A stretch of DNA of 64,000 bases from Giardia intestinalis (lineage: Eukaryota), in assembly GCA_000002435.2 (NCBI GenBank), contig CM018792.1. One strand, written 5' to 3'. A model generated the notes under the pieces. That model did no database searches, was not told the DNA's origin, and saw only the letters and a program-made list of their open reading frames with translations. Both the position numbers and the translations under genes were made by a program. Of the stretch, positions 29,079-59,164 are shown piece by piece. Within the stretch, counting starts at the first letter, position 1. Each line of letters begins with the position of its first letter.

Positions 29079-29085
29079 AGTAAAC
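29079..29085 (+). promoter_or_regulatory. Polyadenylation signal AGTAAAC for VSP copy A (mirror copy at 31802-31808 on the minus strand for copy B)
   Basis: tagatAGTAAACgcg immediately 3' of the VSP stop (29062-29064). Confidence 0.6.
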
Positions 29086-40200: not shown

Positions 40201-42386
40201 CAGAATACGCCTCTCAAGAGGGACAGGAAGTAACATAGTGGCACAGCGCTGATGCTCACGGGATATGGTCGACGAGCACCTGGCCTCTGCTGGATACGAG
40301 GTGTGTGCTGAGAGCAAGGTGTCTGGATTGGGACGGTTATGCCTCTCCAGAGAGGAGACAGGAAGCACCACCATAGATGGGCATGTGCCTGAAGGAGACA
40401 CACAGGAAAGTGACTGCTTTGCTGGCAAGAGAGGACAATCCGAAGCATGCAGGTCTTAAACAAAGAAACGTGCATTCTGAAGAACTATCGACGCTAAGGA
40501 ACGAGCCAGTTCTCTGCATCATCCAGCAGAGGAGTATAAGGGCTGCTACTCCCTCCTCAAGCCTTCTCACTCAACTTAGACTTCCCTGGCTTCCAATTAC
40601 CACATGAACTACTGAGAATGCTAACTGTTCTTCCAATCCACAATAGCTGCGAAACGATAGCAAACTTCGTTTGAGTGCAGTACTAAGCAGCGCAACATAT
40701 GCAAAGACAGCTCTTAGAAGTCAATGTAAGGTATCATCTTGGTAACGGCAATCACCCTCGAATCAGCCGTTCAGTGGAGACAGGATTTTAATAAGATACA
40801 GTTGGGCCATAGACAGGCAGTGGGTGTAGAGCTATTGTAGACAGACGCCGCCCCTAAGAACGCCAGAGGGGAGCTCCCATCAGCTAATGTGTTTCCAGCG
40901 CCACGTCTCTAGTGGAGCATGGCCTCCCGCAGTAAGACTTTGCAGGGGTCACCTGTAGTAATTTTGGATGCTTTATGGGGTGAAGCAGCTTATCCACAGA
41001 CCTCACGAGACCGGGGCTGCCCACATAGCTACTAAAGTGAGAGAGTGTGATTGTATGGAGCAACACTACATCTGCCCCTCCATCATTTGGTGACCAGAGG
41101 ACTGCTCTCAGACTGCGCCTCTGCTCATAAGTGTCCAAGGGTTCCTCTAGCGATTGTCTCGTTGGCTAGTTAACTATGGCTGCCATGGCGACATAGATCA
41201 CTAGTGCATACGCTGGGTTACATTTTGCTAGAGCAGATGGAGGCATGACAGATCAACCCAGAAACGTCTTCTCACGTCGCACGAAAACGCGGATCTACAC
41301 ACTAGGGGTACACTCTCATAAACAGCTTCCTCTGCTACGATCTAGAGTTATCAGGCGAGCGGTGGCGCTTCAGAGCCATCTGCCTCCTCTATGCGAGAGT
41401 TACCCGATAGACCAGAGTCGCTGCCAGAAGGTGTGCTTTGCAGCAGACAGAGTATCTCATGTCTCAAGCCTGTCTGGCCATACTAGGGAACGAAGCCATG
41501 CCGCTAAGCCTCAGGGGATCGGAAAGCACTCCGCAGCCAGTGTGACTCTTGTGATGTTAGCTTCTAGGCTATGGAGGAGCCCTTGGCCTCGTGGTTTTTG
41601 CACTACGGCTCTACTTAGTTGGCCGTCTTACTCAGATGAATAGAACGTGGTGCCTTCTGCAAGTCCCTATACTGCGAGTTCACACTAGGATCCACTAATT
41701 TCTAACTAGTTTGATAGAACCTTGCTCTTATCTCCGCAGACTTGTTACTACAGACAACTCACTGTATTAACTTTATAGTGATCGTGAGTATTCCAAAGCT
41801 GGGAAGCCCTCTGTTAGAGCTACAGGTCCCAGCCTTCATCAAGCCTGCGATTACCTCATCAAAGCCTCCACACACTACGAAGCAGGCTTCTGCCCGTCTG
41901 CTGTGTACCAATGGTCTGCCTTAGACTTTGTGTGTCAGAGCCTGCGTTGGAGGATGCGCTTCTACATAGACTAGCCAACGCCTTGCCAATTGGGTGTCTG
42001 CTCTCATCCATCTGGATCGATGGGTTGTTTGTGGCTATGCCTGAGTCTGCTCTCTGTTGCCAGGTCCTCTCGAGCTGTGGATCTCGCCTGTCCTCGAAGT
42101 GGTGCTACTTCAAGCTGTCACATGTAGGTGGGGGCTCCTGCAGCCAGTGAAGTCAACGTCTTCTAAGCCTGGCATGCACCAGGGCTTCCAGAAGCGACGA
42201 CCTCCATCTGCCATGGCTAGTAAATGTCCTTCATAAAAGCTATGCGGTGACATGGCCTTTCAAGTCGTAACGCCTAGGGTTACGGATGGATGCAAGCGAT
42301 TGCTCTAGAGAACCACCGTGGCCTCAGGGCAAGTAAAAGCAACAAGTAACGGCAGCAGACTGCAGAGCAGCATGTAGGAACGGGGC
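31275..42386 (-). repeat. Right arm of the inverted repeat (reverse-complement copy of 18501-29615)
   Basis: Mirror image of the left arm about coordinate 30443.5. VSP copy B is at 31823..33706(-). The arm is not perfectly identical to the left arm: an A/G difference at 21083 versus 39804 changes Ile to Val in a mirrored spurious ORF, and there is a 3-bp indel near 29606 versus 31281 (GGSLG versus GGLG). Confidence 0.9.
31823..33706 (-). CDS. Variant-specific surface protein (VSP), copy B (protein identical to copy A)
   Basis: The 627-aa translation is identical to 27181..29064, including the signal peptide, CXXC/GGCY motifs, TM segment and CRGKA tail. It is oriented tail-to-tail with copy A, with 3' ends 2.76 kb apart. 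The mirror AGTAAAC signal is at 31802-31808 on the minus strand. Confidence 0.93.
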   Translation of the reverse strand: MLLVAFYFVLSALAAACKQAQNCANERCEMVGETEICTECKDQGNVPVNGVCMPKDNDAVTTAGCKKNGGADLGAEDKVCGQCDGVHFLYKGGCYSTADATGQKLCTDAAEGVCSAAAVGYFIPPGAQKTDQSVILCGDVTEITLTNGKKYKGVQHCTVCTAPEAAESTAKPAVCTACDEGFFAASEGTCTACADNNNCAKCDAGADKCTKCKATAANKYFKDSGDGTGTCVNEQTCKEQSTHFPKDDPNNGNKCLSCSDDKSGGIADCKTCTPKENSEGPILITCSACATDTNKPNVAGTKCIACTVKDCKKCNDDGTCAECDNTRKLTPTKECVDKCEKLEGYFDGDDGTCRACNSVCKTCNGEDPYQCTGCPAKKVLKYTVESTPDSGSTCVDECTTNTNGCAECGATIGEAKYCSKCSDAKQAPLNGNCTASVRAAASCTQIENGICKKCATNYFLFEGGCYETTRQPGMQICKDAAGNDGKCKTCANNLPSNIDTGACPSCPAGCATCTAAGQTYTCQTCLAGYYLDSTKNLCIKCTESSGNIQGVTNCVSCNPPAGNSGPVTCYVKKDGTSDGGNDNSTGGSTNKSGLSTGAIAGISVAVIVVVGGLIGFLCWWFICRGKA

Positions 42387-42454
42387 CGGGCAGGCCTGAG
42401 GACCGCAGGGACGGCCGCTCCTGCAGGAAGCACCAGGATGCGAGACCGGAAAAG

Positions 42455-42528
42455 CGCTCCCTGGCGGGCTTGAACCGCCGACCTTGCGGTTAACAGCCGC
42501 ACGCTCTAACCAGCTGAGCTAAGGAAGC
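42455..42528 (-). tRNA. tRNA-Asn (anticodon GUU)
   Basis: The reverse complement of 42455-42528 folds by hand into a canonical cloverleaf. Acceptor stem: GCTTCCT pairs with AGGGAGC (one G-U). Position 8 is T and position 9 is A. D-arm: GCTC / AGCTGGTTA / GAGC. Anticodon stem: TGCGG / CCGCA. Anticodon loop: CTGTTAA, with GTT at positions 34-36. Variable loop: AGGTC. T-arm: GGCGG / TTCAAGC / CCGCC. Discriminator: G. No encoded CCA, as expected for a eukaryote. It lies 69 bp outside the right edge of the palindrome. Confidence 0.85.
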
Positions 42529-42591: not shown

Positions 42592-45500
42592 ATGCTTCCA
42601 GCGGCCCATGCAGCGGAAGATCTCCTCCTTCTCCTCCAACATCCGGCAGAGCGGAGAATCACCGCTCTTCCAGGATACTCGTGCGTTACTGCGCTCGGAA
42701 GACACAGCAGCTCTGAGGTAGTCTTCTGCAGCGAAGAAGAGGGCCAGGTTACCTTTACACCAGAGCGACCGGCACCTCCCTTTTCTTTTCTCTTCTACAA
42801 GAGCCAGGATGCAGCCCCTGCTGTGCTTCTAGGATGCAGCAGCTGCCAGGAGCAAACGTCCCTGCTTTCTACTATTCTTATAATTTTCACTGCTGTTTAC
42901 AAACAATCTGCTCGTTTCCAAACACAGCAACTATACCCGCTTTACGAGCAATTCTACCGCCTACTTCGACTTGACCCTCTACTTGTTCAATCGTCTGTGC
43001 TCGTTGACCTCCTTGAACATTCACCCCACATAGACCTTCCTGCGGCCCTAGATGCACCTCTGGTTTACAGATACGAAATGGGGGTGCGCCACTACTTCAG
43101 TAACATTTTGCACCTCTGGGCCTTAGAGGCGTCCAATCTCCTGAGCTTTAGCCAGGGGCCCCGTGTGTATGATGGACCCAGCACAAACACAAAGTGTGCA
43201 TATGGGACTCCAGAATATAGTGTCTTTGTTCCACGAATCAAAAGCTTTATAGACTCTATGCGTAAGCACATTAAACTAACGGGCTTCTCCTATACTGACT
43301 GTTTCAATCTGATCATTCTTGAAAAGCTAGCACAAATGCCATCATTGTTTAGTTTTATTCTCACAGGGAGCCAAAAGCATTCTCATCTTTTGTCCATCAA
43401 GCGCTACATTGACCAAGCTTTGGATGACAAGACTAGTGTCTTTCACAAGATGATTTGCATCCTTGCCAAGTCCAATTCACACAGTGTTGGCGAATTCAAC
43501 AGACTCAGCTACTTCTCCCAGAAGCAGGCTGGCGCATTGAAAAGTGCCCTACAACTTGCCATCGCCCTGCTGCCGTATGTGTTGGTTATCCATCGAGTCA
43601 GTACTAGTTATTACCATATTGTGCATAGCGACATTCAAGAAGAACTCTCGTTGGATTTGCTTAGCGACGCTTTCTTTACTGCTATCTGTAATAGACTTAC
43701 TGAGAGTAAGGAGCCCGCAGCCTATGACTTAATTGCTTATTCGCTAGGCTCTGACATAACACTGGCGGTTCAACATGCTATTGGTCCAGACCACTTATTT
43801 GCTACAAACATACTTCTATATAGACGGAACCTTGGGTCTGCACTTCGGTTTCTAGATAGACTAGGGAGTGTCCTTCCTGAGTCTCCCAAGCTTACCACTC
43901 GAATCTCACAACTCAGGCTACGCTGTCAAGATCTTCTCGACCTCAGTATGTGGCAGTATCAATATAACACTGCATTGGGTATTATCAAAACAAGTGTCTA
44001 CGAGTTTCCTCCCTCTCTGCTTACTATTCTCGAAGAGACTGTAAAGACAATCCAGCTTTTCATACCAGATTCGTACTCCACATCTGAGACGGAGCCAACA
44101 AGCAACTTTACCTATGCTCTAACATTGCTCCCGACCGAGGGTGCCTTTGATTGGCTTCCGTTTTTACTGCAAGGTCTAGGATCGGAGCATGTCGTCTCTG
44201 CTTGGCCAAAGAATCTCGTCAATTCATCCTCACTCGATAAACTAAGTGGTTCGGGTTCATACTATCCTATTTGTGGTCGGTATAAACCAACGAACACAAC
44301 TGAGCAGTCTTGTCAAAGAGCAGTCAAGGCGGCTATTCAAGGAGGAAGGCCTACTCCTACAAGCAGATCAACTTCTGGAAGAAAGAAACCAATCCTTAGA
44401 CTGACTCTTGATGTAGACGACCTCCAAGCTTCAAACACAATAGGCTCGAGCCTGTCGGTCAGCTCTTTTTCGCATGTAGCTGAGGCCCCAGTTAAATCTA
44501 TCACCAGAAGAGAAAAAAGCATGTTCAAGTACAACCACCCAAAAAGAAAACTTGTTACTAAATCGCTCACACTCGCAACACTATTTAAGCACAACTTTCA
44601 AGTCATGCAGAGTATCATCCACAGGGCAGATTTCAATTGCATCCACAGCATTTCTGTAGGCCTTCAGCGCCTAGCTCCGAGCTTGGTGCCAACTTTCGAA
44701 GGTGGCCGTGAGATTCAATCGGCTACACCCCCTATTCTTCCCCTGCATTTAGGACGACACATCATTGCAGTGCGCACGCTACTTGAACGGCAAGCGATCT
44801 TTGCAGCACTGTCCCCCTTGCTTCTACAGTTTATCCTTGCCTCTATCAGCTTTCTCTTTTACATCAAGCGCAACGTACTTAAATCATTCTTCAATATTAT
44901 ACATTTGGATCAGTACTACCCATGTGTGCTATTTATCGAACATCACTACAAGCACTGCGTGATTCTAGCATACATGGTTTGTTGTTTCGGAACTGTCCTG
45001 TTGAGGTTTGTAGCCTGGAAAGCCACCGAGTCTCCCTTGCTGTCGACTGTCACAGAGGAATTTCTTAGCAGAGTCACTAGCCACGGACTACTAGATGTGA
45101 TGCTCTATTTGTCCTCTCAGCTTTTGGAGCTATTACGTGTTTCTCTACCAACTCGTACTCATTGCAGACTCGGTGACTATCCATACAAGCATATTGCTTC
45201 ACTGAGCCAGAAATTGCCGTGTCCCGAATTCCTTACATTTCTATGGCTCTTTGATCAAGTATTTGCGGCATTGAAAGCAATGCGCGACGATTGCTATCAA
45301 GCCTGGTCGTCAGCACTCAATCAAACTGCCGAAAAGCTTCACGATATTATGACTTCTGTACCCATTTCTGTAGCAAGCCAGGCCGGTAACTTAGTGAGCT
45401 ATTCCATTGGTAATATAGACCCGCTTCCGAACTTCATTCGGAGTTGTCATCTGTACCAAGTTAGTACGGCATCTCAAATGTTCTCAAGCTCTGATGAAGG

Positions 45501-48500
45501 GACTAATGACCATCCTTTCAACGTATTGTATGATCTTCTGAATAAAAAACATGACGAACAGGACAATTTTCAGACCGTACTACTCAACTTTAAAGAAGAC
45601 TTGCTGAATTGCGGGCCCACAGTGAAGCATGGAGCGTGGATCTTACCTCCAATTTCTCCTCAGCTATCACAAGCCTCGCTTTCGCTTTTTCGGTTCTGTA
45701 TATCTACCTCCATACTTCACAAGCATAGGCGCCTAGAGTCTTTACTTAATGAGCATCGTTCGCTTTATACACGTCTTCATCAGTCCCACCTATGGACGTT
45801 GGTTCGAGAACAGTGTGTACAGGTCGATGCTTTATTCAAGAGTTATCTCTCCAATCCAGCTTTCATCTGGCAGACAACTGACACTATGGAGCAATTTCTG
45901 CAGGACCTCAGCGCTTCTATCCAGCTGCTTTCGTCGCAAACCCATACTCTATCTACTATCACTGCTAATCTTCGCAACAGCCTTATGAGCTATGCGCCAG
46001 CTTTAAAGAAGCGCATTAACTTGCCAATCACACAGCCCCTTGCACCTGTTTCAGAATTTCTAGCATCATCCCGCTCGTGGTCTAATGACCAACTACCAGA
46101 CAGCATTGTTGTGCATATTCTCAATGATATCTTGTCACAGGAGTCAGAACTAGGAGACACACCTAAGTATTTCATTCCAAAGTTTGCAGAGGTAATCCAG
46201 TATCATGAGTATTTGTCGTTTGGAAGCATGGTCCTGGCAGACACGGACTTATGCAATAATAATACTGACGGTGATGGCCTAAATCAACAAATCAGCTTGT
46301 TTATCAATACCTGCAACCAAATTGAAGAGCGTATCTACCTGTTTAAGAGATCTATTGAAAGCCAACTTGATTCTTACTGCAAAGAAGTAGAACTGCTACG
46401 CGCCTCTTCTGAGTTATCTGATGAGCTTTTGCTGGCACTGTTTAATGACCTATCTCTTACCTTGCACGAATTGGCTGTTGTGTGGATGCTTTATCTGTAT
46501 CTTCTCTCTTCACCTAAAACCCCCACCCTACTCCACGTTGCAACGACGCTCATTGGCGACAAGTTATATACAAGTCCCGCCTTAGGGTCACTTTCCGAGA
46601 TCCCCCAGGCGATAACAGACTTACTCTCACTGCTCTCCCTACATAAGACCATCGATCAGCAATCCATGACACCAGAGTTGCAAAATATTTATAGCTGGGC
46701 CGAAACGCTGATCCATGCAGATCCGCTATTACTTCGGCTATCTGAATCTATAGAAGACAGAGCTCTTACTGCAGTACTTCATACAGTCACCGGAAGGTTA
46801 GCTATATGGGTTATTAGCGTCATTCAAATTCCCCTCCTAATTGACCGAGTGCTAGAGAAGTTGCCCGAAATGAAGTCTTCGTTCCACAACTTATGCAGCA
46901 AATCGACACGGCCTGCTAGATTCGATTGCGAATACTCTGCCCTCAACCAATACCTTCCCCTCAATCTCCTTTTTTCGGACACAAGTATTGTTCATTATTA
47001 CAAATTTGATGGGCTTCTATTCCACATAGCAAAGCTATTATTTTTCTGTTACTCGAAAGGGTATGAGCAGTTTGATGGTATTACTTCCACAATCTCTGCT
47101 AGCCATGCCCAGCTTTCCAATTTGAAGCAATCAGAAGACATTGTACTAATGGACCTACATACACATCAGAGTGCCTCCCTATTTCTGGAGAACTTGCTCG
47201 GCTATCTGGGTGACATCTTGCACATACAAGCATCCATAGATCATATACCTAGTACTAAGCAATTTAATAGATTTTTTGCGGAGTTTTTGCGATTTAAGAC
47301 CTTTATCACGGAAAAGGAAAGCAGGATTAGTGTGATAACTTGCGGGTTGTACCTGCTTAGAAGCACAGGCCTTTCGGAGCCTCTTATTTCACAAGCATCC
47401 ACCATCGTGAAGGAGCTGTCTTCTCCAATTCTATTCAATCTTTATTCCATTTTAAATCTCTATCTAGACGCGCTGTCCAGGGTAGAGAAGGAGTGTTACA
47501 CGCATTTAAAGCATGCACTGGGCCAACTTGATGACTCCAGGTCTCTTATCATCGAATACCGTTACTATCCAGTTATCCCATCGACTCTGGAACCGGCAGC
47601 GCTGATAAGGACCGTTTATCTTCTGCGGAGTATCTTTAAAGTCGATGCCCTCAGGAAGCTTTACGAGCAGATTAATAATAGGAGTCAGGTTTTGATCCTT
47701 TACATGCAGAAGAACGGGATAGATATAGAGCCGGTCTTTAAACAATCCACTGAAAAGATCCTAGCTCTCCAAGGGGCGATAAACATTACCTATGAAAAGG
47801 TGAAGTATCTCGTTGATAGCACGCGAGCAAGCCTTCTGGCCTACACTGTGTCTGCTAATGATGCGCTGATGACGGCTCTACATGACTTCCTCAGTTTCAG
47901 GGCTCTTGATCATAGGGAATCGTTAAGCCTGGCACTCCAAAGTGCCATTAAGCAGAGAGCGTTGACAGGGGCACACGTCCGCAATCTATATGTACACGGT
48001 TCCCGGATCCTTCTCTTTCTAGAAGACTCCCTTGTACGCATCCGGCATGTCTACTCCAAGCTGTGTTACCACTATGAGCTGTGCTACCTTCAGGGAATAT
48101 ACGGTCCTGCTATCTTCGTAAAAACAGCGCACGATATGCTGGGCTTCATCAGGCGGAGTATTGAGGGCACTGAGTTTCCCAATTATCTACGCTTGATCGC
48201 CTCATACCAAGTTATCTGGGGACGACTTTGCCAAGTGGCTGACAGACTTCTATATTATGAGGACAAGCCAATAGCCTTGTTCTACGATAGCTACACGGAG
48301 ATAATGGCTTTGCTTAAGGACAGCTACACACTTCGAAGACAAGTCACCCTTGACAATGCAGTTTTTCTTGAATTCTTGAGCTGGTATGAAGATCTTCTGC
48401 ATATTCTTCAAGAAGAGCTTCTCTCCATTATCAATCTCAAAGATTTTACACCAGAGCAATGGCAGGACCTAATTTATCACATCGGGCATGTTACTCAAAG

Positions 48501-51500
48501 CTCTAAATGCATGGCCCTCTGCACTCTGGATAGCGAAACGCAGCTTACTCTTGGAAATGTCCTACTTCTCAAACTGAACACACACCCAGACATACTGAGA
48601 GGGAAGATATCTATGGCCTTGGTTAGCTCTGCCGTCTCAACCAAGGTTACGAATGCAATCTCACACTGGTCCGATCTTAATACCACAGATTTCATAGCGC
48701 TTGTCCGGGAGTTATCTGACATGATGGAATGCACTGGCTTGGAGCACTGTCTCTTCGCAAACTCTATTGTAAAAGGTAGAGCGGCAGATATTTATGTTGA
48801 ACAGTACTTTGATGCCCATGACCTTCTTTCCCTATCTATCATCCAGCGAAGCGCAGAAGAACTGGTACGAGGGATGCTACAATCTACATCACTAAAAGCT
48901 TCTCACACAGCACTTCTATTGGAACATCTTGAAACCTTCAGGGCTGTTGCAGATATGGAGTGTAGCGAGCGATCATTCCCTATGCTCACGTGCTGCCAGG
49001 TGTATCTGCGTACAATTTTAGATGTTGGGCTTGTGAGCGCGGTATTTGTTTCCACTCTGTCTCAGTTATATAATTTTTTAATAGCCTATTCGTATATAGG
49101 GCACGAAGATTGCTTAAACCCCTTTACTGCTTGGACACTCGAGGATGAGGTATCCAAGTGTTTAACCGTACTATTTCATATATTGTCAATACACAAGTAC
49201 ATACTTGAATTGTATGACAACAATCTGCAATTCAAACGATACCTATTATCAGATATGATCGAAGACAGCAGCAAAACTGTGGAGGATATAGAAGCTGTAC
49301 TAGCGTTTCTTCATGGACAGAAAGTGCTCCAGAAGAAGGACCGCTTTTCTGTTGAGAACTTCAATATATTCTGCGGACGTCTTACTAGCTACTTTGTGCC
49401 TATAAGGCTGTGTGCCTTTTCTATGCCCCTTTATCAGGCAGAAGAAGCTTTAAAACTTGAAGACCATACTTCATCGCCTTCCCAGGAACCATCCAACAAC
49501 TCTTCTTCCAAGACTTGCTTAAAAGATGTGTCGATTTATCCACTTATGATTCTACTATGTGTGGCGCTAAAGGCAGTTATGGTAACTATTATTGATTCTG
49601 TTAAGGATTCCTTACCACATCCATCTCTAGAGCAGTCTTCAGAGACTTCTTACATAACAGACTATGCAGTTACGGAAATCAGAAAGGCCATTATTCCTTA
49701 CAATCTCTTCTGCCTGTTTTCGAAGGGTCTTAATGTATGTGTCACACTTAATACCTTGTTATCCCTTTCAAAAATAGATCCTTTACTAAACGGGATTGTA
49801 TCTGGGGATCTCTCTTTTAGCAATCCCAACCACAAATTTTTTCTTCAAGCCTTATCAGAGGCTAGCGGATCTGAGTCTACTTCAGATGCAGCAGAAGCCG
49901 ATGTAAGTAACTGCTCCCTCTTCAGAACTGCTCTACTATCAACTTTCTGCAATCCCTTTCTTAAGAGACTGCTCGCCGGATATCAGAAGCTGATTACCAG
50001 CTCTGAGGATCAAAACATTATTATAGGCTATTGGTGCGACTTTCCCAGTGAGTCTCCGATGATCTTCTATCAACCTGTCAACCTTTGTGCTGTTAATAGA
50101 TGGATATGTACCTCTGAATGCTGCAATTTACATCCCTTATGGCTTGCGGTTATTTCTGTTTTTCATGCATACGAGGAAACCTTGCGCATAGGATCCTTGC
50201 TTGCCCTCCGTGAGCTTCGTGCACTATGCTCGCTATCTTTGTCGGTGGATCTTTGCACCAACCCATCAGCAAATGATGAAGATCACGCCAAGGGAGTCTA
50301 TCTTACTTACGGCTACTGTGACCTAGATGCGTATCAATACGAATTTGTTCCTTTTCAGGCCATGTATATCGGTGCGCGCTTGTTTTTGAGCACACTTTGT
50401 CTATTCCAACACGATTACACCGGGAGGGCCTCCATCATATCCTCAACAAGCAACGACTTTCTTATCTACATCTGTGCACTAGTACAGAAGCACATGTCTA
50501 TAATCACTGAATTGCCACTGCAATTGCTTATGCTTCAGAAGGAGGGTAACAGTGAGACGCAGCTGCTTACAAGACTCATTGACCTACCCTCTATGCAGTG
50601 GAAAAGTGCCATGCTATGGCTACTCTTTGAAGACTTCTGCGAAAAATTAAAGGCCTCAGAAACAACCCTTCAAGTGCTACGGGATAGAGCCCTTAGTGGA
50701 GGAAAGGCTTCCATAGACCCTGACTTCATCGCTAGGGATCTACTCCAGAAGCTGGTAAGCGATAATGTGCTCTTCTTGCAAATGGAGCTCAGCATCTTTC
50801 CGGGGCAGGCGATGTCTCTACTAAATAGCCTTGACATCTCTTTCAGTCCCTCAAAAGCAGCTTCTAGGGGTATCATGTACTGTGCTTCTTCATCTCCAAA
50901 CGGGGTTGTTATCGCCAGATCGTTGTTTGCCCAGATTGCATCATCCATACCCAGTTTACCGATGATAGACTTAATTAGAGTTTACTCTCCAACTTTATCA
51001 GTAACACGAAGTTATCTGAATGGTCTGTTGACCGCAGCTTCTTGCCAAAGCATGCTATTGTATGGGCTTCAGTTCATTTCACTAGTTCGTTCAATTTTTC
51101 AGACAATTCTTTTCTCTGATGAATCTCAAGTGCATAGAAAGCAGTCAGTCCAGTTCTTCGTCGCTCACCAAGCACAGCAAGTACTCACGGAGATTGCGTC
51201 CGTGCTATGCTTTTCCAACACACAAAACAAGCAGCCAAGTGCCTCAGTGTTATCCGCATGTAGCCATGAAGCTGTTACTCAAAGATATTCACTGATTCTT
51301 GTCCCAATTGATTCCAAGTGGGAAACTTTTCAACGACAAGATCTCGCTGTCTGCGGATCTGATCAAAGTTTCAATCGAAATGTCTCAGTAGATAAGCAGT
51401 CGGATCAGTCGCACATATACAGAGCGTGTGTGGAGATAGCAAACCTAATCAGGGATCCATCTAACGGAAAGGTGACTTGCAGAAATTTGGAACGTGCTCT

Positions 51501-54500
51501 TGCTAAATTTTTATATCATCTACTTGCTGGAACAACCATTGAATCAGCAGAGAAATTTCTTTATTTATCTATAGACGAACTGCTGCGGACCTTGGCACCA
51601 CTGTCCTTGATAGGAATTAGACGGGTTGCAGAACATAATACTATGTCAGTACTATTTGATTCCAAGGTGTTTATGATGCATGCACAAAGTATTCTTCAGC
51701 AGATGGTGTCTATGGACCTTGATGAGCGGCTTCTCCAGTGTATGGACCCGCTGCTTGACTGGCTGGTTCAACTGGTGATGCGGCTTAGGTATCTATTCAT
51801 TGTGGCAAGTCCCCTCAACGCTGTTGTACTCTGTGGGCCAGTCTTTTCCTATGTCCACGTCCTTCCGTGGATTTTCTTTCGAGCTCTTAAATCCTCTGGC
51901 TTTCCAACTTGTTATTCCTCCGAGCAATCTGAGCACCTATCCAAGGAAGCACAAGACTATGCATTTTTATCCATTCATTCTCTAAGGTTATCATCTGATA
52001 GATCTATCAGGGAAGTGATTTCCCTTTATGCTTCAGAGCAACCCTGTTACAGAACTATTCTTATGTTGACAACAGAAAGTCTTACTGATGAACAAAGAGA
52101 CATCTGCCATCGTTATGGAATTCCGATTCTTAACACAGCAAGGCCCATTGCTGACGCAAATGACTTTAAGCATTTAGAGCTTCTCTCCCTCTATACAAAC
52201 CTCCATGCTTGGTGCTGCCCAATATATCCAAGAATAAATGGCACTTGGAGCTTCACTCCTTCGCCATTCTCGTTAATATCAATGCGCCACGATACAAGTT
52301 CAGCTTTGGAGTCACAAGCAGAGCTAAAAGAAGTGCAGCAGCAAGACCCAGAGTCTATGACGGAATCGTCGGAGCGCCTTCAGAGTATGTATTTGAGTAT
52401 TAATCATCAGAGGAAGCTCCTTGCCCCCCGAATAGTCCACTCCTTTATAGAATTGTCTGGAGTGTATAGAGATCTTGTTGAAAAGGCTGTATCATCAACC
52501 GCGCTTTGCACGTATTATCGTTACCACGCTATAACTGGCGCCTTGTCTATCGTGTTGGCCATACTTGACACGCTTCTGATGGACCCATGCATTAGGGTTA
52601 ATATTTTGAGATTGGAAACAAAGTACTTTCATGCCATTGTTGTGTTCTCGTGTAGCTGGGCCTACGCTGCCTTGCCAATAAAGTCCCATCGTAATGTAGA
52701 TCTTAAATCTGACTGTGCTAGTGCACCAGCTAGTCAAGCCGAGAGTTTCCTATATGTAGATTCATCTATCCGCAAAAAATCGCCCCTTCTTCTCAAAACT
52801 GTGCCTCGCACCCTGCACACCAGGCAAGCGGTCATCGACTCTGCTCAGATTTCATGGCCTGTGTTTCTTAGCAACGCCTTAGGCTCCCTTGTGCTGACTA
52901 AGATAGGATGTCATGCCTCAAACATATATGATTTTGTACCGGCTGTTCGGGTAGAAAACAAAGTGATTGTCGATGCTCTGGTCACCACATCTCTCTGTTT
53001 GGAGCACAGATCTTGGCCCGAACTGGCCCAGACTCCCAGGGCATTAGTTCCACAAATCGTGGTGACACTATGTCAACTTTATGCAGGGGAAAGGCTTCTT
53101 TCCGCTGACGCTGGCCTATCGCACATTGAATTCTCTGCTCTAAGTGCACACATATCTCACTTCTATTCCCTCGGGGTGTATAGCCTTCCTGCACAGCGCT
53201 GTCTCGGGATTCTTAGTAATGTCTTTATCATACCTGGTGCTCAGCCAGTACGTAGAACAGCTACGCCAGAGAGTAACTCCAAGCGTCGGCTTACACCTCT
53301 TCAAATCGTGCATTGTGCCTTCTATCCACTTAGTCGAGATCCAACTAGCAAAGCTGGAGATGCTACGAACCTTACATTACGCTCTGGCGACCCAGAGTTC
53401 TGCCCCCTTGTTGTGGCTGCAATACCCATCTTTCTAACGCCTTCATCTCAGCAACACAAGGCATACTCTTACGCTAAGACATCAAGTCAGATTCTATATA
53501 TCTTTGATCACCATCCCCCTAGGCAACACATACAGAGACTTCACCACCCCGCGTCCATGGTTCTACTCCAAGACACATACCCCGGTTCGCAACAAGCAGA
53601 TTCACGGTTTACATTTATGACCCCGCGGATCAACTCGACTGTGCATACTCTAGTATTTCAACTTTTCCAGCCATTAGCTAGCACCTTACCTCTTTCTTGT
53701 GATCAGGATGCCTACATTATCCTGATTCAGCTTACTCTTCAGGCAATTCAGGATTACCGAGGGCCTGCAGAACATCATCACTCTCTCAATACTATGCTAG
53801 AAATATTGGCTCCTGTTCAGTCGTTGTTGGAAGGCTTTGTCCTCAACGAGAAAATAACCCGGAACGTATACCGGTCATTAGCGCATGAAGAGCTAGTTTC
53901 GACAAGCGAGCCTCTTCTCACGCCCAGTCTTGCTATTTTTGCATGGCTTCTTTCCACTGTCGACTTTTATACATCATGCTTCTCTAAATCATTCTATGAT
54001 AGTCCAGAACGCAGCAGTTTCAGTGAGCTGAAAGACTTCTATGGAAGCCTACTCTCTCTGGCCTCATTCAAGGCTAGCAAGGTTGCAAGTACAGATGCAG
54101 ACCCTGGGACCTTCCTTAGCAGCTCTGTAAAGTCTTTTGGCACCATGGAGCTTCTAGAGTTCTACGAGACGTACCCTCTGTTTGCTATTTCGCTCGGACA
54201 CACCAATCTTTTTCTACCGCTAAGGTTACGGAATATATCCACCTTTCCCATAAGAACTGGCTCCAACACAATGACTGGTATCTTGTCCAACTTCGCGGCA
54301 CATGCCCAGAAGCTTGAAGAAGTGGTTACACATTCGGTACCCCCGCTAGATTCTTCAATGTTCTTACGTCTCCTCGGTCTCCAAAAGTATCAACAATTTC
54401 TTCTGGCAAACAACACATCATTGCCTCTTCCCTGTCCCGTAACTAAATCATCTGAACAGGCAGAGTCATCCACTTCAATTGATGTAGGAACAATTTGCAC

Positions 54501-57500
54501 AACAGCTATCCAATGCATTAACTTTAGAATACTGTGTGATCTATTTTCAAATATACATAAGATCCTGCACTCCACTCCTTTGGATCCGCTGGATGGCAAC
54601 TACATATACTACTCACATATCTCTATGCCTGCATTTAGAGTCGGGGTTCTTCTTCGTAATCTTTCTCTTTTCCCCGTTACACGTGCAGAAGGCGTCTCAT
54701 CAATCCTTGTCAACTCTCACCTAAGGCTCTCTCGATTCATTCTCACAGAACCAGGACACTCTCTTAGGGACACACTGGCATATGCTTGCAATTTGCGGGG
54801 GCTAATATACCCACTCGAAGTTGTTGGCATACAGAGTACGGAGCAGGGCATCTTGCTGGAGATTGCGCAAACACTATCGCTAGGCTATATGCTGGTTGCG
54901 TGGATGCGAAAGCCTGTCTGCATATACATCTCTTCGTATGCGGTTCGAAATGCTAAGATTCTTGCGTCATTGGTTTCACTCCTATGTTACGGGTACTCTC
55001 CAGAAATCATGAGCACATTAACGACAATAGAGCAATACGCATTAACTCGAAAGATTCTTGGATTACTCTATGACCCATCTTATGGTCCAGAAAGATCGAA
55101 CAGTGCAATACTCAAAGACTTTAGCAGCATTGTTGATGGCCCTCTCGAACGCATAGGCATCCTTCAAATTTCTGAGGACAGTAGTCCATCACTTGTCAAG
55201 GCTATACGTGCATCTGGTCTCCGGCGCTTTCTAAGTCTTGTTGCGTTGGCTCACTTCTCAATTCCGCCAGCCTCTTCACGTGGACGAGATCCAAATCAGA
55301 ACTACACGTCACAATTGAAACTAAAACGGACAGGGGATCCTCCTATTTCAGTTCTGAACACATTGCCAGAGCTTCTGTGCTCCCCCATTGATGTTCTTTC
55401 AACAACTTCGGCAGACGTATCCCTGTCCTCCCTTTTGCATGTCTATGTGGACGTTCCCATATACTCTGATGTTCATTTGTTTCTGAAAATGGCTCACTAT
55501 AATCACATATATACCAGTAATTTGGTCTTTGCTATGCCCCCAGCTACAGAGTTCGGCCTTGTCGAACATACCCTTCGCAGAGAGCTGAGTATGGAGACTC
55601 CAGCCCTTCTTCAAGATATACTAGACGACCAGGAGTGTCTAAAGCTAGCTAAAGTATATACACACATAATCACTTATCTATCTAAAGTAGTGGATAAACG
55701 TTTATTGTTCTACTACACATCCTACTCAACTTGCGTAGAATTTGGTAAAGTTTTCAAGTCTCTGCTCTACCATAGGAGGCACACATTTACTGTTCGTCAG
55801 AAGCACTACGATCTTGCACTCACCAATCTTCGACTTGTCCATGAAAACTCTGAGCAGGCCTTAGAATCTTGCAGACGAGCATCCGCAGAGATCCAAGCAC
55901 ACTCACTTGCATTTCAAAACACTAACTTTGAGCTATCACATTTAGAAGAGGAGATTTCGGTAGTCAAACAGCGACTGTGCGTTAGAACTAATGATAAGAG
56001 GTATGCAGAAGAGACACTGAAAGAGGCATCTGAACTTCAGAATCAGTACAAGAAACAGATAGTAGTATTTCATAGACAAATGGATAGGATCTCCGATTAT
56101 CAAAATTCAGTCAATCCCATTTTATTTGCTGCAGGCTGGCAGACGCATAAACGCTTTCAGGAGTGCCTTTCTATGGCCTGCCTACACTTAGCTGCATGTA
56201 CCTCCAAGAAAGTCTCAGTTTTCGCGCTCTCAGTACCGAAGAAGGGGGCGTCAAAGCATACATCGAAAGAGATAGAGCCATCTCTGGATACATTCAAGCG
56301 GCGCGTTAGCAATATTGATGTGTTTATCAAGGAGATGATTGCACCCTCTCCCGAGGAAATAGTCAACTCTCCGCACTATCAGCTTATTAAGGACTATCTT
56401 CTGGATGCCATAGAAAGTATTTCCGGCTATAGACATACCGCCTCAACATATCTCGTGCCAATCGAACATGTCAAGGTGGAGAAGGGGGCCCAGAGTGACC
56501 TTGCTGTTCTCCCCAAAGAAATATCGACACGTCTTCCACCATTCTATACAAAAGAGAAGGCACGTTATGTTCCATCAACCATGGATCTTTTAAGGGCCTC
56601 TGTCGAAGTGCGAAGTGTCCACGTGATTGCTGATATGCTTTTCTGGATCCTCCTTTTCCAGATGGAGCTTAGTACCATGTGGATTAATGGCGCCGAGTAC
56701 AGAACGGTTATTTCTGATCAGGAAACTGCTATTTCAAACTGCGCAAATGATATTGACAGCCTGGAGCGTCAACTGGCTGCCTTTGAGTCTCGTCTTCTCT
56801 TGGGGCAAGAGCGCAAGCAGAATCTTAATGCAGAGCTAACCAACTTACGCAATAAGTATGCAGAGTCCAAAGATATGTTGTCAACAACCAGCAGCATTTT
56901 AAGCAGCATCAGCGACTTGAGACAGGCTTGGCTTGGAACTAGTGCAGACCTGAAGCTGAAATTAGACAACATTATGGGAGATAGTATTGTCATCGCCACA
57001 GCATATACCATGCTACTCCATGTCAACTCATCAACCCGGTGCAAGCACCTGGCAGGCATAGCAAGTCTCTTGGCAGACACATATGGATACACCATTTCTC
57101 CTGTTTGGACCGAGAAGGGCCTCTCTGATAGCTGCATCACTAACATGACCCTTTCAAGTAACGAACTCATGCAAATACAATACGCTGCTTTAACGTCTCA
57201 CTTCTTTGCCCCACAGGTGCCTCTTTATGAGCGTGATCTGAATATAATTCTAAGCAACACTAGCGTAGAGGTGTCTGGGGACATCAATGTGTCAGAGGAC
57301 GAGTGGCTGGGCCTAATCAACTGTTTCGGATCACTAACAGAAATCGAAGCAGACATACTCCGCCATGGAAGCACACTTATACACGAGACCTTTGTTTTCT
57401 ACGTGACTGCACTGCTATTTGGTCACCGTAACACAGCAATTCTTGTCACAGATCAGACAAGATCCCAGGGGAGGCTCCTCTCAGAAATCGTTTCTAAGGT

Positions 57501-58434
57501 AAGCATATTCCACGCATCTAGCAAAGGCTGTACACGCCCAATATTTTTGCAAACTCTCGCCGATTGTCAAAGATTGTACTCTGTAATCCAGCACTGTATC
57601 GTAGATAGTATGAGCACATTAGAGAACCAAGTCCGTGCACACGAGGACGCGATTGCTTCTATCGCTGCATCCTTGCGTGCCGATGCTATTACATCGGACA
57701 GCCCACTTGAAACGCTTGAGACCAGCTCTGTTGTTTTTCCAGTAGCCGTAGACACTACTTTTATGCATCAAACGTCTATGCACGATCTCTTATTGGGAGC
57801 ATTCCAAGTGTCTACCAGTGACAAGGGGAACATCTACAAATATGCTATTAATCGCCAATCATCATGTGTAGAAGCACTCTACAGCAAACCAGGCACACTG
57901 ACAGCGCACAGCCCCCTGAGGTTGTTTCTGACATCCCTCCACGACAAGCAGGACGTTGTTCTTTCCATCGCGAACAACCAGCTCCTGTCATTCTGTTCAC
58001 TAATAGATTTAGAGCCCGTTGGGTACCGTGCCCCTGAGATCTCGGAATCAGCTCCTACAGTCAAGGTGGTCTTACAGAGACCTGTCTCGGACTTCACTTA
58101 TCTTGATTACACCAGCAATCTTATCACAGTGGAAAAGCCGGTGGTCTCGATGTATCGTGTAGACTCAGAGCGTATCTATCAGGAGGTGTCTCTCTGTGGG
58201 TATGTCCTTTCCATTGTTGATGAAGCTATAGTTGACTTTATGTGCACCTTACAATCCAATGCCGACGTCCTTAATACCTTGACCAACAAAATGCTCCAAC
58301 TGGTGTTATCGCCCAATAAGGTGCCGTTTCTTGAAGCCATCGCCGAGGTCCACCAGCAAATGAAGATCGTCACTGCCATGGTCATCCGCCTCAAGAAGTG
58401 TCTCTTCTTGAAAATCCACATGCCTAGAAGGTGA
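42592..58434 (+). CDS. Giant hypothetical protein (5281 aa from first ATG), mostly alpha-helical, with a coiled-coil segment near the C-terminus
   Basis: A single uninterrupted 15.9-kb ORF. The track starts at TTG 42568; the first in-frame ATG is 42592 (MLPAAHAAEDLLLLL), preceded by an A/T-rich region (aacataatgattattatatgcattgtgcacttttgtttggcttgaaATG). I find no Walker-A (GxxxxGK[ST]) motif anywhere in it. One short C-terminal stretch (LERQLAAFESRLLLGQERKQNLNAELTNLRNKY...SDLRQAWLGT...LDNIMGDSIVIATAYTMLL...WTEKGLSDSCITNM) loosely resembles the region after the stalk in dynein heavy chains (E..RW....GD.LLA.AF..Y.G.F....W...GLP.D..S.EN). That resemblance is weak and unverified. Confidence 0.75.
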   Translation: MLPAAHAAEDLLLLLQHPAERRITALPGYSCVTALGRHSSSEVVFCSEEEGQVTFTPERPAPPFSFLFYKSQDAAPAVLLGCSSCQEQTSLLSTILIIFTAVYKQSARFQTQQLYPLYEQFYRLLRLDPLLVQSSVLVDLLEHSPHIDLPAALDAPLVYRYEMGVRHYFSNILHLWALEASNLLSFSQGPRVYDGPSTNTKCAYGTPEYSVFVPRIKSFIDSMRKHIKLTGFSYTDCFNLIILEKLAQMPSLFSFILTGSQKHSHLLSIKRYIDQALDDKTSVFHKMICILAKSNSHSVGEFNRLSYFSQKQAGALKSALQLAIALLPYVLVIHRVSTSYYHIVHSDIQEELSLDLLSDAFFTAICNRLTESKEPAAYDLIAYSLGSDITLAVQHAIGPDHLFATNILLYRRNLGSALRFLDRLGSVLPESPKLTTRISQLRLRCQDLLDLSMWQYQYNTALGIIKTSVYEFPPSLLTILEETVKTIQLFIPDSYSTSETEPTSNFTYALTLLPTEGAFDWLPFLLQGLGSEHVVSAWPKNLVNSSSLDKLSGSGSYYPICGRYKPTNTTEQSCQRAVKAAIQGGRPTPTSRSTSGRKKPILRLTLDVDDLQASNTIGSSLSVSSFSHVAEAPVKSITRREKSMFKYNHPKRKLVTKSLTLATLFKHNFQVMQSIIHRADFNCIHSISVGLQRLAPSLVPTFEGGREIQSATPPILPLHLGRHIIAVRTLLERQAIFAALSPLLLQFILASISFLFYIKRNVLKSFFNIIHLDQYYPCVLFIEHHYKHCVILAYMVCCFGTVLLRFVAWKATESPLLSTVTEEFLSRVTSHGLLDVMLYLSSQLLELLRVSLPTRTHCRLGDYPYKHIASLSQKLPCPEFLTFLWLFDQVFAALKAMRDDCYQAWSSALNQTAEKLHDIMTSVPISVASQAGNLVSYSIGNIDPLPNFIRSCHLYQVSTASQMFSSSDEGTNDHPFNVLYDLLNKKHDEQDNFQTVLLNFKEDLLNCGPTVKHGAWILPPISPQLSQASLSLFRFCISTSILHKHRRLESLLNEHRSLYTRLHQSHLWTLVREQCVQVDALFKSYLSNPAFIWQTTDTMEQFLQDLSASIQLLSSQTHTLSTITANLRNSLMSYAPALKKRINLPITQPLAPVSEFLASSRSWSNDQLPDSIVVHILNDILSQESELGDTPKYFIPKFAEVIQYHEYLSFGSMVLADTDLCNNNTDGDGLNQQISLFINTCNQIEERIYLFKRSIESQLDSYCKEVELLRASSELSDELLLALFNDLSLTLHELAVVWMLYLYLLSSPKTPTLLHVATTLIGDKLYTSPALGSLSEIPQAITDLLSLLSLHKTIDQQSMTPELQNIYSWAETLIHADPLLLRLSESIEDRALTAVLHTVTGRLAIWVISVIQIPLLIDRVLEKLPEMKSSFHNLCSKSTRPARFDCEYSALNQYLPLNLLFSDTSIVHYYKFDGLLFHIAKLLFFCYSKGYEQFDGITSTISASHAQLSNLKQSEDIVLMDLHTHQSASLFLENLLGYLGDILHIQASIDHIPSTKQFNRFFAEFLRFKTFITEKESRISVITCGLYLLRSTGLSEPLISQASTIVKELSSPILFNLYSILNLYLDALSRVEKECYTHLKHALGQLDDSRSLIIEYRYYPVIPSTLEPAALIRTVYLLRSIFKVDALRKLYEQINNRSQVLILYMQKNGIDIEPVFKQSTEKILALQGAINITYEKVKYLVDSTRASLLAYTVSANDALMTALHDFLSFRALDHRESLSLALQSAIKQRALTGAHVRNLYVHGSRILLFLEDSLVRIRHVYSKLCYHYELCYLQGIYGPAIFVKTAHDMLGFIRRSIEGTEFPNYLRLIASYQVIWGRLCQVADRLLYYEDKPIALFYDSYTEIMALLKDSYTLRRQVTLDNAVFLEFLSWYEDLLHILQEELLSIINLKDFTPEQWQDLIYHIGHVTQSSKCMALCTLDSETQLTLGNVLLLKLNTHPDILRGKISMALVSSAVSTKVTNAISHWSDLNTTDFIALVRELSDMMECTGLEHCLFANSIVKGRAADIYVEQYFDAHDLLSLSIIQRSAEELVRGMLQSTSLKASHTALLLEHLETFRAVADMECSERSFPMLTCCQVYLRTILDVGLVSAVFVSTLSQLYNFLIAYSYIGHEDCLNPFTAWTLEDEVSKCLTVLFHILSIHKYILELYDNNLQFKRYLLSDMIEDSSKTVEDIEAVLAFLHGQKVLQKKDRFSVENFNIFCGRLTSYFVPIRLCAFSMPLYQAEEALKLEDHTSSPSQEPSNNSSSKTCLKDVSIYPLMILLCVALKAVMVTIIDSVKDSLPHPSLEQSSETSYITDYAVTEIRKAIIPYNLFCLFSKGLNVCVTLNTLLSLSKIDPLLNGIVSGDLSFSNPNHKFFLQALSEASGSESTSDAAEADVSNCSLFRTALLSTFCNPFLKRLLAGYQKLITSSEDQNIIIGYWCDFPSESPMIFYQPVNLCAVNRWICTSECCNLHPLWLAVISVFHAYEETLRIGSLLALRELRALCSLSLSVDLCTNPSANDEDHAKGVYLTYGYCDLDAYQYEFVPFQAMYIGARLFLSTLCLFQHDYTGRASIISSTSNDFLIYICALVQKHMSIITELPLQLLMLQKEGNSETQLLTRLIDLPSMQWKSAMLWLLFEDFCEKLKASETTLQVLRDRALSGGKASIDPDFIARDLLQKLVSDNVLFLQMELSIFPGQAMSLLNSLDISFSPSKAASRGIMYCASSSPNGVVIARSLFAQIASSIPSLPMIDLIRVYSPTLSVTRSYLNGLLTAASCQSMLLYGLQFISLVRSIFQTILFSDESQVHRKQSVQFFVAHQAQQVLTEIASVLCFSNTQNKQPSASVLSACSHEAVTQRYSLILVPIDSKWETFQRQDLAVCGSDQSFNRNVSVDKQSDQSHIYRACVEIANLIRDPSNGKVTCRNLERALAKFLYHLLAGTTIESAEKFLYLSIDELLRTLAPLSLIGIRRVAEHNTMSVLFDSKVFMMHAQSILQQMVSMDLDERLLQCMDPLLDWLVQLVMRLRYLFIVASPLNAVVLCGPVFSYVHVLPWIFFRALKSSGFPTCYSSEQSEHLSKEAQDYAFLSIHSLRLSSDRSIREVISLYASEQPCYRTILMLTTESLTDEQRDICHRYGIPILNTARPIADANDFKHLELLSLYTNLHAWCCPIYPRINGTWSFTPSPFSLISMRHDTSSALESQAELKEVQQQDPESMTESSERLQSMYLSINHQRKLLAPRIVHSFIELSGVYRDLVEKAVSSTALCTYYRYHAITGALSIVLAILDTLLMDPCIRVNILRLETKYFHAIVVFSCSWAYAALPIKSHRNVDLKSDCASAPASQAESFLYVDSSIRKKSPLLLKTVPRTLHTRQAVIDSAQISWPVFLSNALGSLVLTKIGCHASNIYDFVPAVRVENKVIVDALVTTSLCLEHRSWPELAQTPRALVPQIVVTLCQLYAGERLLSADAGLSHIEFSALSAHISHFYSLGVYSLPAQRCLGILSNVFIIPGAQPVRRTATPESNSKRRLTPLQIVHCAFYPLSRDPTSKAGDATNLTLRSGDPEFCPLVVAAIPIFLTPSSQQHKAYSYAKTSSQILYIFDHHPPRQHIQRLHHPASMVLLQDTYPGSQQADSRFTFMTPRINSTVHTLVFQLFQPLASTLPLSCDQDAYIILIQLTLQAIQDYRGPAEHHHSLNTMLEILAPVQSLLEGFVLNEKITRNVYRSLAHEELVSTSEPLLTPSLAIFAWLLSTVDFYTSCFSKSFYDSPERSSFSELKDFYGSLLSLASFKASKVASTDADPGTFLSSSVKSFGTMELLEFYETYPLFAISLGHTNLFLPLRLRNISTFPIRTGSNTMTGILSNFAAHAQKLEEVVTHSVPPLDSSMFLRLLGLQKYQQFLLANNTSLPLPCPVTKSSEQAESSTSIDVGTICTTAIQCINFRILCDLFSNIHKILHSTPLDPLDGNYIYYSHISMPAFRVGVLLRNLSLFPVTRAEGVSSILVNSHLRLSRFILTEPGHSLRDTLAYACNLRGLIYPLEVVGIQSTEQGILLEIAQTLSLGYMLVAWMRKPVCIYISSYAVRNAKILASLVSLLCYGYSPEIMSTLTTIEQYALTRKILGLLYDPSYGPERSNSAILKDFSSIVDGPLERIGILQISEDSSPSLVKAIRASGLRRFLSLVALAHFSIPPASSRGRDPNQNYTSQLKLKRTGDPPISVLNTLPELLCSPIDVLSTTSADVSLSSLLHVYVDVPIYSDVHLFLKMAHYNHIYTSNLVFAMPPATEFGLVEHTLRRELSMETPALLQDILDDQECLKLAKVYTHIITYLSKVVDKRLLFYYTSYSTCVEFGKVFKSLLYHRRHTFTVRQKHYDLALTNLRLVHENSEQALESCRRASAEIQAHSLAFQNTNFELSHLEEEISVVKQRLCVRTNDKRYAEETLKEASELQNQYKKQIVVFHRQMDRISDYQNSVNPILFAAGWQTHKRFQECLSMACLHLAACTSKKVSVFALSVPKKGASKHTSKEIEPSLDTFKRRVSNIDVFIKEMIAPSPEEIVNSPHYQLIKDYLLDAIESISGYRHTASTYLVPIEHVKVEKGAQSDLAVLPKEISTRLPPFYTKEKARYVPSTMDLLRASVEVRSVHVIADMLFWILLFQMELSTMWINGAEYRTVISDQETAISNCANDIDSLERQLAAFESRLLLGQERKQNLNAELTNLRNKYAESKDMLSTTSSILSSISDLRQAWLGTSADLKLKLDNIMGDSIVIATAYTMLLHVNSSTRCKHLAGIASLLADTYGYTISPVWTEKGLSDSCITNMTLSSNELMQIQYAALTSHFFAPQVPLYERDLNIILSNTSVEVSGDINVSEDEWLGLINCFGSLTEIEADILRHGSTLIHETFVFYVTALLFGHRNTAILVTDQTRSQGRLLSEIVSKVSIFHASSKGCTRPIFLQTLADCQRLYSVIQHCIVDSMSTLENQVRAHEDAIASIAASLRADAITSDSPLETLETSSVVFPVAVDTTFMHQTSMHDLLLGAFQVSTSDKGNIYKYAINRQSSCVEALYSKPGTLTAHSPLRLFLTSLHDKQDVVLSIANNQLLSFCSLIDLEPVGYRAPEISESAPTVKVVLQRPVSDFTYLDYTSNLITVEKPVVSMYRVDSERIYQEVSLCGYVLSIVDEAIVDFMCTLQSNADVLNTLTNKMLQLVLSPNKVPFLEAIAEVHQQMKIVTAMVIRLKKCLFLKIHMPRR

Positions 58435-59076: not shown

Positions 59077-59164
59077 TGTTTCTTATTTCTCTTCACTCCC
59101 TTTAATGTAAATTGCCAAAGTGGGTCAAAACAAAAACCGAACAAAAAGTGCAGAATTGCGCACC

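Follow-up and report, generated by a model that had tools for sequence, protein, structure and literature searches.

A giant Giardia protein without nucleotide-binding motifs that carries a probable dynein-like stalk segment

Gene, product and relatives

In a 64,000-nt stretch of Giardia intestinalis contig CM018792.1 (GenBank assembly GCA_000002435.2; hereafter the window), a single unbroken open reading frame (ORF), with its ATG at 42592 and its stop codon at 58432-58434, encodes a giant protein that contains, close to its C-terminus, a segment likely to be related to the stalk of dynein heavy chains (DHCs). An exact-sequence look-up identified the translation as GL50803_0016772, a hypothetical protein of G. 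intestinalis WB (XP_037901984.1, KAE8303881.1, UniRef100_D3KHE9), and located the sequence on 19 contigs. The original prediction, made from the letters of the window, had described a repeat-poor, single-exon protein of 5,281 amino acids (aa) that lacks a Walker A motif. The ORF is real, the count of 5,281 including the stop codon. Because the 5' splice motif GTATGTT does not occur on the + strand anywhere in the ORF and the RefSeq model is the same as the ORF, the gene consists of a single exon as far as the sequence can tell. The coordinates of the gene, of the parts of its product and of neighbouring features are collected in Table 1.

The protein is rich in leucine (14.3%) and serine (11.0%), contains 4.6% aspartate and 5.0% glutamate, and is mildly acidic, with an isoelectric point (pI) of 6.2-6.5 across the three related proteins described below. 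Neither BLASTP nor profile self-comparison revealed internal repeats, and a motif scan of all 5,280 residues found neither a Walker A motif (G-x4-GK[ST]) nor an hhhhD[DE] motif, and a relaxed P-loop pattern had no match either, in agreement with what had been read from the letters; the absence of Walker A and B holds even with relaxed patterns. Hydrophobic windows are few and mostly unconserved, and for this reason we rejected the reading as a membrane protein. The gene has the lowest overall GC content (0.45) among the window ORFs examined, its GC content at third codon positions (0.454) lies near the bottom of the range (0.452 in a VSP gene, up to 0.60 in others), and the GC skew on its coding strand is strongly negative (-0.07 to -0.16). 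Low expression or the Leu/Ser-rich composition may account for these values.

Table 1. Positions of GL50803_0016772, the parts of its product and other features in the window (aa, amino acids; pLDDT, predicted local distance difference test; CC1 and CC2, outgoing and returning helices of the stalk)
Feature	Position (nt)	Strand	Description
Complete ORF, GL50803_0016772	42592..58434	+	5,280 aa plus stop, ~590 kDa, pI 6.3; without repeats and without nucleotide-binding motif
N-terminal 4,377 residues	42592..55722	+	domains, repeats, membrane segments and structural homologues: none recognised; proposed scaffold/anchor
Outgoing stalk helix (pre-stalk helix and CC1), aa 4378-4506	55723..56109	+	one continuous 129-residue AlphaFold helix, central pLDDT 70-82; crude coiled-coil composition scan
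Stalk-tip domain, aa 4507-4684	56110..56643	+	~178 aa; basic, conserved; AlphaFold pLDDT <50
Dynein-like segment, aa 4682-4829	56635..57078	+	W-containing helix MLFWILLFQMEL, returning helix CC2, junction SDLRQAW-x15-GDSIVIATAY..R4816
Post-stalk C-terminal region, aa 4830-5280	57079..58431	+	acidic, pI 5.0-5.5; well conserved to aa ~4920
tRNA-Asn (GTT)	42454..42528	-	ARAGORN and Rfam
Inverted repeat, left arm	18497..29604		11,108 nt, 100% complementary to right arm
Inverted repeat, right arm	31283..42390		spacer to left arm 1,678 nt
VSP gene	27181..29064	+	627 aa
VSP gene	31823..33706	-	627 aa
H/ACA snoRNA GlsR21	8902..9012	-	full-length match to Rfam RF02484, 133 bits
ORF	13768..18396	+	1,542 aa
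ORF	59120..61291	+	723 aa
ORF	61311..62687	-	458 aa

An exhaustive HMMER scan with aa 4082-5280 against 1.84 billion representative proteins returned only two real full-length relatives, P0016 and P0017, both from Logan assemblies, together with two small fragments; no dynein was among the matches at E<=1e-3. P0016 (5,282 aa) is 76% identical to GL50803_0016772 within aa 4082-5280 and 65% overall, and P0017 (5,756 aa) is 25-29% identical. The two presumably come from another G. duodenalis assemblage and from a more distant Giardia species, respectively. A metagenome scan for relatives returned nothing, and a word-indexed homologue search with the C-terminal 1,500 aa gave no match, in an index that seems blind to very long proteins (a human dynein query retrieved fragments of at most 1,240 aa). 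Three lineages, the most distant at 25% identity, have kept an ORF of 5,280-5,756 codons intact, so the sequences indicate a real gene under selection, and the giant protein that it encodes is genuine, conserved and lineage-restricted. The best conserved part is aa ~4055-4920, which comprises the stalk region and its flanks, and the C-terminus is conserved to the last few residues in P0017, as expected of the true end of a protein.

One other match, of a bacterial cadherin/Big_9-repeat protein (P0020) to aa ~5029-5098 (57676-57885), is probably spurious, its E-value of 6e-11 being summed over 15 tandem domains; it might point to a small beta-rich domain C-terminal to the stalk. The same residues are unstructured in the AlphaFold model described below.

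A predicted hairpin near the C-terminus

A coiled coil followed by a patch containing SDLRQAWLGT had been predicted at about 56.7-57.2 kb, and both are located there: SDLRQAWLGT is found at aa 4774 (nt 56911), and the stretches LDNIMGDSIV and ISPVWTEKGL follow at aa 4791 and aa 4835. The patch sits directly after a long helix; ~200 residues upstream there is another. The C-terminal region is thus laid out as helix, insert of ~180 aa, helix and patch, the same arrangement as in a dynein stalk.

AlphaFold2 gave no usable model from the single sequence (pLDDT 36). With an alignment of the three related sequences the mean pLDDT was 41.5, and only two long helices were resolved, the outgoing helix of Table 1 and a second at aa 4678-4794 (117 residues), the centres of both reaching pLDDT 70-82. 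The pLDDT peaks of the two helices are symmetric about a tip insert of ~170 residues, as expected for an antiparallel hairpin, and the two helices of ~100-120 residues are predicted to pair as an antiparallel coiled coil. A stalk composed of CC1, tip and CC2, with ~100 residues per helix, is therefore present in a model whose overall confidence is low. The insert differs in character from the rest of the protein: it has a pI of 8.9-9.4 and a net charge of +4 to +7 in all three related proteins, which are otherwise acidic. Its conservation peaks include VNPI..A..WQ..RF and FKRRVSN.D.F.K.MIA.

A Foldseek comparison of the model with the PDB placed six axonemal chains of 3,100-4,500 residues at the top (E 7e-5 to 7e-4), three of which were identified as DHCs by sequence, and more dyneins (7k5b_C, 3vkh_A and 8i3j) appear lower in the list. 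The structure prediction that had been proposed for the C-terminus thus yields two stalk-like helices and DHC-sized leading matches, from a model of low overall confidence. Hairpins of SMC, MukB and Rad50 rank under the top six, with scores one to two orders of magnitude worse than those of the DHCs. These proteins likewise have an antiparallel hairpin with ~100 residues per arm and a globular tip; they differ in having ABC ATPase heads, with Walker A and B motifs, assembled from their N- and C-termini, and they are absent from the sequence-profile matches at E<=10. We rejected an SMC/Rad50-type ATPase, as GL50803_0016772 has no Walker motifs and its hairpin, which occupies aa 4378-4794 of the 5,280 residues, does not join the two termini.

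Dynein-like sequence at the returning helix

We searched the PDB (177,635 sequences in total) with three queries drawn from this region. A profile of the three related proteins over aa 4340-5280 (A2) gave as its top match 9y6s_6o, a Leishmania axonemal DHC, at E=0.014, in an ungapped alignment of 131 residues from the start of CC2 to GD..A..Y; the runner-up had E=0.13. P0017 alone (phmmer) gave the DHCs 8glv_JG and 9y6s_6o as its two leading matches, in that order, at E~1 and again in this register. A profile confined to the junction, from which nearly all of CC2 had been dropped (A4), gave a single match, mammalian DNAH1, at E=0.5, with KLDNILGDS aligned to MLDNIFGDV. Each of the three queries therefore ranks a DHC first; the DHCs differ, and the register is the same, at the junction of CC2 and AAA5.

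That these matches reflect chance and coiled-coil bias, GL50803_0016772 being a huge helical protein peculiar to Giardia, with an ordinary coiled-coil hairpin that is linked to dynein neither by evolution nor by mechanism, is unlikely. Such an explanation is consistent with the marginal E-values (0.014, 0.5 and 0.9), with the negative Pfam searches described below, with the finding that phmmer with GL50803_0016772 alone matched no dynein among all PDB sequences (an SMC2 fragment was found at E=1.4), and with the fact that the patch was chosen post hoc, when the letters of the window were first read. It accounts poorly for three partly independent queries that converge on one register, and for a dynein signal that survives the removal of nearly all of CC2 from the query, while CC1, of similar composition, draws no coiled-coil matches in the A2 search. 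By a rough estimate, much less than 0.1% of all PDB residues belong to DHC CC2 junctions, so three top matches there by chance would be very unlikely.

Profile-profile alignment points to the same residues. The human DYNC1H1 fragment 3172-3894 was confirmed by a match of 1,577 bits over 723 residues to 5NUG_A and was used to fetch real dynein fragments. With a profile of cytoplasmic dyneins only, the best hhalign match in all 5,280 residues is aa 4682-4829, which aligns to about 3392-3539 of DYNC1H1 with a single one-residue gap; the matched segment of DYNC1H1 comprises the last helix of the microtubule-binding domain (MTBD) with its tryptophan, the whole of CC2 and the junction SLSAERERW...GDCLLSAAFIAY. 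A broader profile, of cytoplasmic and four axonemal fragments, raised the score to 47.9-51.9 (P 1.6e-6 to 5e-5, probability 67-80%), again the best anywhere in the protein. Shuffled controls (150 full and 150 preserving heptad phase) had a mean score of 14.7 and a maximum of 28.4, the heptad-phase shuffles reaching no more than 28.3 against the observed 47.9. Reversed sequences and unrelated Giardia coiled-coil ORFs scored at most 35.8; that another Giardia coiled-coil ORF reaches this score against the same dynein profile is a further point in favour of chance. The three ORFs of 1,542, 723 and 458 aa in Table 1, none of which matches a Pfam family at E<=1e-3, served as decoys.

The spacing of the motifs, which agrees with that of dynein to within one residue, also argues against chance. 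From the start of CC2 to the tryptophan of the junction there are 77-78 residues in the related proteins and 78 in human dynein; from this tryptophan to GD there are 16 in all of them and in human dynein; and R4816, invariant in the three related proteins, lies at GD+20, as does the conserved arginine of dynein. The junction signature of dyneins, ..E[KR].RW...-x-..GD.LL.[AS]AF..Y.G.F...YR, is thus found at its fixed distance from the start of CC2, in a form that is weak in absolute terms. The likeness to the end of CC2 and to E..RW...GD.LLA.AF..Y, which the original prediction had advanced with reserve, is borne out, with DHCs at the top of the PDB profile searches and hhalign scores above those of shuffles and decoys. 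The second likeness that it had proposed, between W...GLP.D..S.EN and WTEKGLSDSC, did not survive: it lies outside every significant alignment, and the GL is not conserved in P0017. Overall, the sequence comparisons suggest that the resemblance of the patch to dynein goes modestly beyond chance, that aa ~4682-4829 are likely to be truly related to the dynein stalk, and that the stalk segment most likely derives from dynein.

A probable stalk without a recognisable motor

On balance, we consider GL50803_0016772 to be a giant non-motor scaffold with a dynein-derived stalk and a conserved basic tip, which would act as a static tether. Lacking a nucleotide-binding site, the protein cannot serve as a motor, and it is very probably non-catalytic.

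Several observations weigh against this reading. The individual E-values are all weak, from 0.014 to 1, and the Giardia profile was built from three sequences only. The hhalign score against cytoplasmic dyneins alone, 39.5, is barely over those of the decoys (30.7-33.0), and natural coiled-coil decoys reach P ~7e-4, indicating that the hhalign P-values are inflated here. Neither the C-terminal pieces nor P0017 matched the Pfam families MT, AAA_6-9, DHC_N2 or Dynein_C at E<=10. In hhalign, comparisons with AAA1-4, with AAA5, AAA6 and the C-terminal region, and with CC1 plus MTBD were no better than reversed controls; the dynein sequences compared were a real fragment (P0033) for AAA3-4 and a human sequence, confirmed only over 3172-3894, for AAA1-4. 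Dynein likeness was found nowhere outside aa ~4682-4829: CC1, the tip and the parts before and after the stalk are without it. Finally, GL50803_0016772, which the original prediction had proposed to look for in published disc proteomes, is absent from the searchable parts of the Giardia disc and encystation proteome supplements; its gene ID was likewise not found in the paper texts searched.

Searches of the remainder of the protein gave a similar picture. A Pfam hmmscan of the whole protein at E<=1 matched nothing in aa 1-3000 and only sub-threshold coiled-coil families in aa 2501-5280, the families returned (ADIP, DUF724 and crescentin) being coiled-coil noise. A profile of aa 2900-4339 had no match in the PDB, and aa 1-2899 matched nothing in Pfam or the PDB, neither the linker (DHC_N2) nor the tail (DHC_N1). 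The original prediction held that its dynein likeness would be due to chance if profile searches found no dynein family, and at the level of Pfam the idea would indeed fail. Aligned to CC1 plus MTBD, aa 4360-4720 scored 15.9 (P=0.27); the tip within it is predicted at low confidence.

Four resemblances noted by eye were rejected as unsupported: a P-loop-like stretch, VVLCGP...RAL, within VVLCGPVFSYVHVLPWIFFRAL (aa 3078-3099), compared with dynein AAA3 and not supported by hhalign; a 28-mer in the tip, DVFIKEMIAPSPEEIVNSPHYQLIKDYL, compared with an MTBD segment; VNP at the end of CC1, compared with VEP; and RNTAILVTDQ, compared with R.PLLIDPQ. We also rejected a midasin/Rea1 protein, as there is no Pfam match to AAA or VWA domains, the aspartate and glutamate contents are low (4.6% and 5.0%), and no acidic tract was seen in the translation.

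The closest known system is nevertheless the DHC stalk (Pfam PF12777 MT; DYNC1H1 ~3190-3540; PDB 5AYH; axonemal DHCs 8GLV, 9Y6S and 9D2F), with which GL50803_0016772 shares the long helix, the tip, the returning helix and the junction W-x15-GD..[IL].A.A..Y...R. Its CC1 is ~17 residues longer than that of DHCs, its tip has ~180 aa and no detectable similarity to the MTBD of ~125 aa, and its stalk, unlike that of DHCs, is not flanked by recognisable AAA4 and AAA5 modules. Only 486 residues follow CC2, whereas we take the region after the stalk to have about 700 residues in the shortest dyneins and about 1,140 in human DYNC1H1; the region is too short for both AAA5 and AAA6. A DHC is defined by a ring of six AAA+ modules, of which AAA1-AAA4 have P-loops, by matches to the Pfam families AAA_6, AAA_7, AAA_5, AAA_8, AAA_9 and Dynein_heavy, and by a linker, a tail and at least ~700 post-stalk residues; none of these was found, and GL50803_0016772 should accordingly not be classed as a dynein heavy chain. 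The motif and Pfam scans thus agree with the earlier view that it is no canonical DHC, midasin or other AAA+ giant. The further idea of a dynein-derived protein without ATPase sites stands for the stalk segment at aa ~4682-4829; nothing dynein-like was found elsewhere.

These findings bear on a particular form of the tether reading, which is also the original prediction in its strong form, in which the whole protein is a heavy chain degenerated nearly beyond recognition, its tail, linker and six AAA-derived lobes persisting as folds. The stalk does lie near the C-terminus, as in dyneins, with ample room upstream (4,400 aa, as against ~3,190 in DYNC1H1), and evolution fast enough to leave 25% identity to P0017 makes a loss of similarity plausible. 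Precedents exist in DNAHX and DNHD1, which have a degenerate AAA1 (bioRxiv 10.1101/2025.01.18.633724). We regard a wholly degenerate heavy chain as rather unlikely, as hmmsearch and hhalign brought up nothing that resembles AAA1-4, AAA5/6 or a linker, profile self-comparison showed no AAA-like internal repeats, the residues after CC2 are too few, and the P-loop-like stretch at aa 3078-3099 is unsupported.

The precedents themselves differ from GL50803_0016772. DNAHX of sea urchin sperm and DNHD1 of mammals are presumed non-motor DHCs with degraded catalytic motifs, whose stalk/MTBD insertions may abolish normal microtubule binding, and DNAHX is reported missing from protists (bioRxiv 10.1101/2025.01.18.633724). 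Giant size, a relationship to dynein and a presumed non-motor role are common to all three proteins. DNAHX and DNHD1 are plainly recognisable DHCs that keep six AAA folds and most motifs, whereas GL50803_0016772 has no detectable AAA module and too short a post-stalk region. A recognisable motor domain with a degenerate AAA1 was not found in it, and since DNAHX and DNHD1 keep such a domain, it is not a protein of their type.

Alternatively, GL50803_0016772 could be one part of an active, split dynein whose ATPase modules come from another gene product or are joined by trans-splicing. Dynein heavy-chain genes are among the trans-spliced genes of Giardia. Two reports describe the joining of mRNAs from separate loci by trans-splicing in this organism (PMC5224939, PMC8494341), and the shortness of the post-stalk region, which could not hold AAA5 and AAA6, would fit such an arrangement. 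A split dynein is extremely improbable: AAA1-4 would still be required upstream of the stalk, where none was found, the + strand of the ORF has no GTATGTT motif and the RefSeq model is the same as the ORF, and the C-terminus, conserved to its last few residues in P0017, behaves as a true end.

The surrounding window

The genes that neighbour GL50803_0016772 are typical of Giardia and include two VSP genes, an ankyrin protein of the 21.1 type, a tubulin-tyrosine-ligase-like (TTL) protein, topoisomerase III and the snoRNA GlsR21, which lies between two protein-coding ORFs. The window also contains a perfect inverted repeat, the right arm of which stops ~200 nt upstream of the giant ORF. Each arm holds one VSP gene and also ~8.7 kb without an ORF of at least 200 aa, which is unusual, Giardia being gene-dense. 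The composition bin at 30-32 kb, part of which is spacer, has 60% GC. The repeat may be a true VSP palindrome or else an artefact of assembly. Between it and the giant ORF, 64 nt upstream of the ATG and on the opposite strand, is the tRNA-Asn gene.

Proposed role

For the favoured tether, two origins fit the data about equally: the stalk would be the relic of a whole heavy chain that has degenerated, or a stalk fragment fused as a module onto an unrelated scaffold. We lean slightly towards a fused fragment or very heavy remodelling, given how short the post-stalk region is and that no trace of AAA modules was found. By either route, the part of dynein that was kept would be the arm that holds a binding domain ~15 nm out from a large body, and the protein would act as a passive strut or tether. 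Its basic tip would attach to a partner of acidic character, the microtubule lattice being the most plausible candidate, while the N-terminal part of ~4,400 residues would anchor it in one of the microtubule assemblies of Giardia, such as the axonemes, the ventral disc, the median body or the funis. A conserved basic tip in an otherwise acidic protein, followed by an acidic post-stalk region, favours a passive tether on an acidic surface; the charge of the tip is compatible with such binding and is no proof of it. From its sequence we suggest, tentatively, that the tip might bind microtubules.

We infer ancestry from dynein, binding to microtubules and a structural role, as well as the pairing of the two hairpin helices. 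Taken together these features would describe a dynein stalk and junction redeployed, without the AAA+ ring, as a nucleotide-independent microtubule-binding strut in a Giardia-lineage-specific cytoskeletal component of ~590 kDa, a combination that we put forward as possible and somewhat doubtful. To our knowledge, dynein stalks occur only as the mechanical link between the AAA+ ring and the microtubule-binding domain, and we know of no earlier case of a stand-alone, nucleotide-independent dynein stalk. A ring-less stalk, if real, would mean that this module can be retained for purely structural use, and GL50803_0016772 would be a natural example of a motor decaying into a scaffold, well past the stage represented by DNHD1 and DNAHX. 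The ventral disc and the cytoplasmic axonemes of Giardia contain many densities without assigned proteins, and GL50803_0016772 may be regarded as a candidate ~590-kDa microtubule-associated component of this organism.

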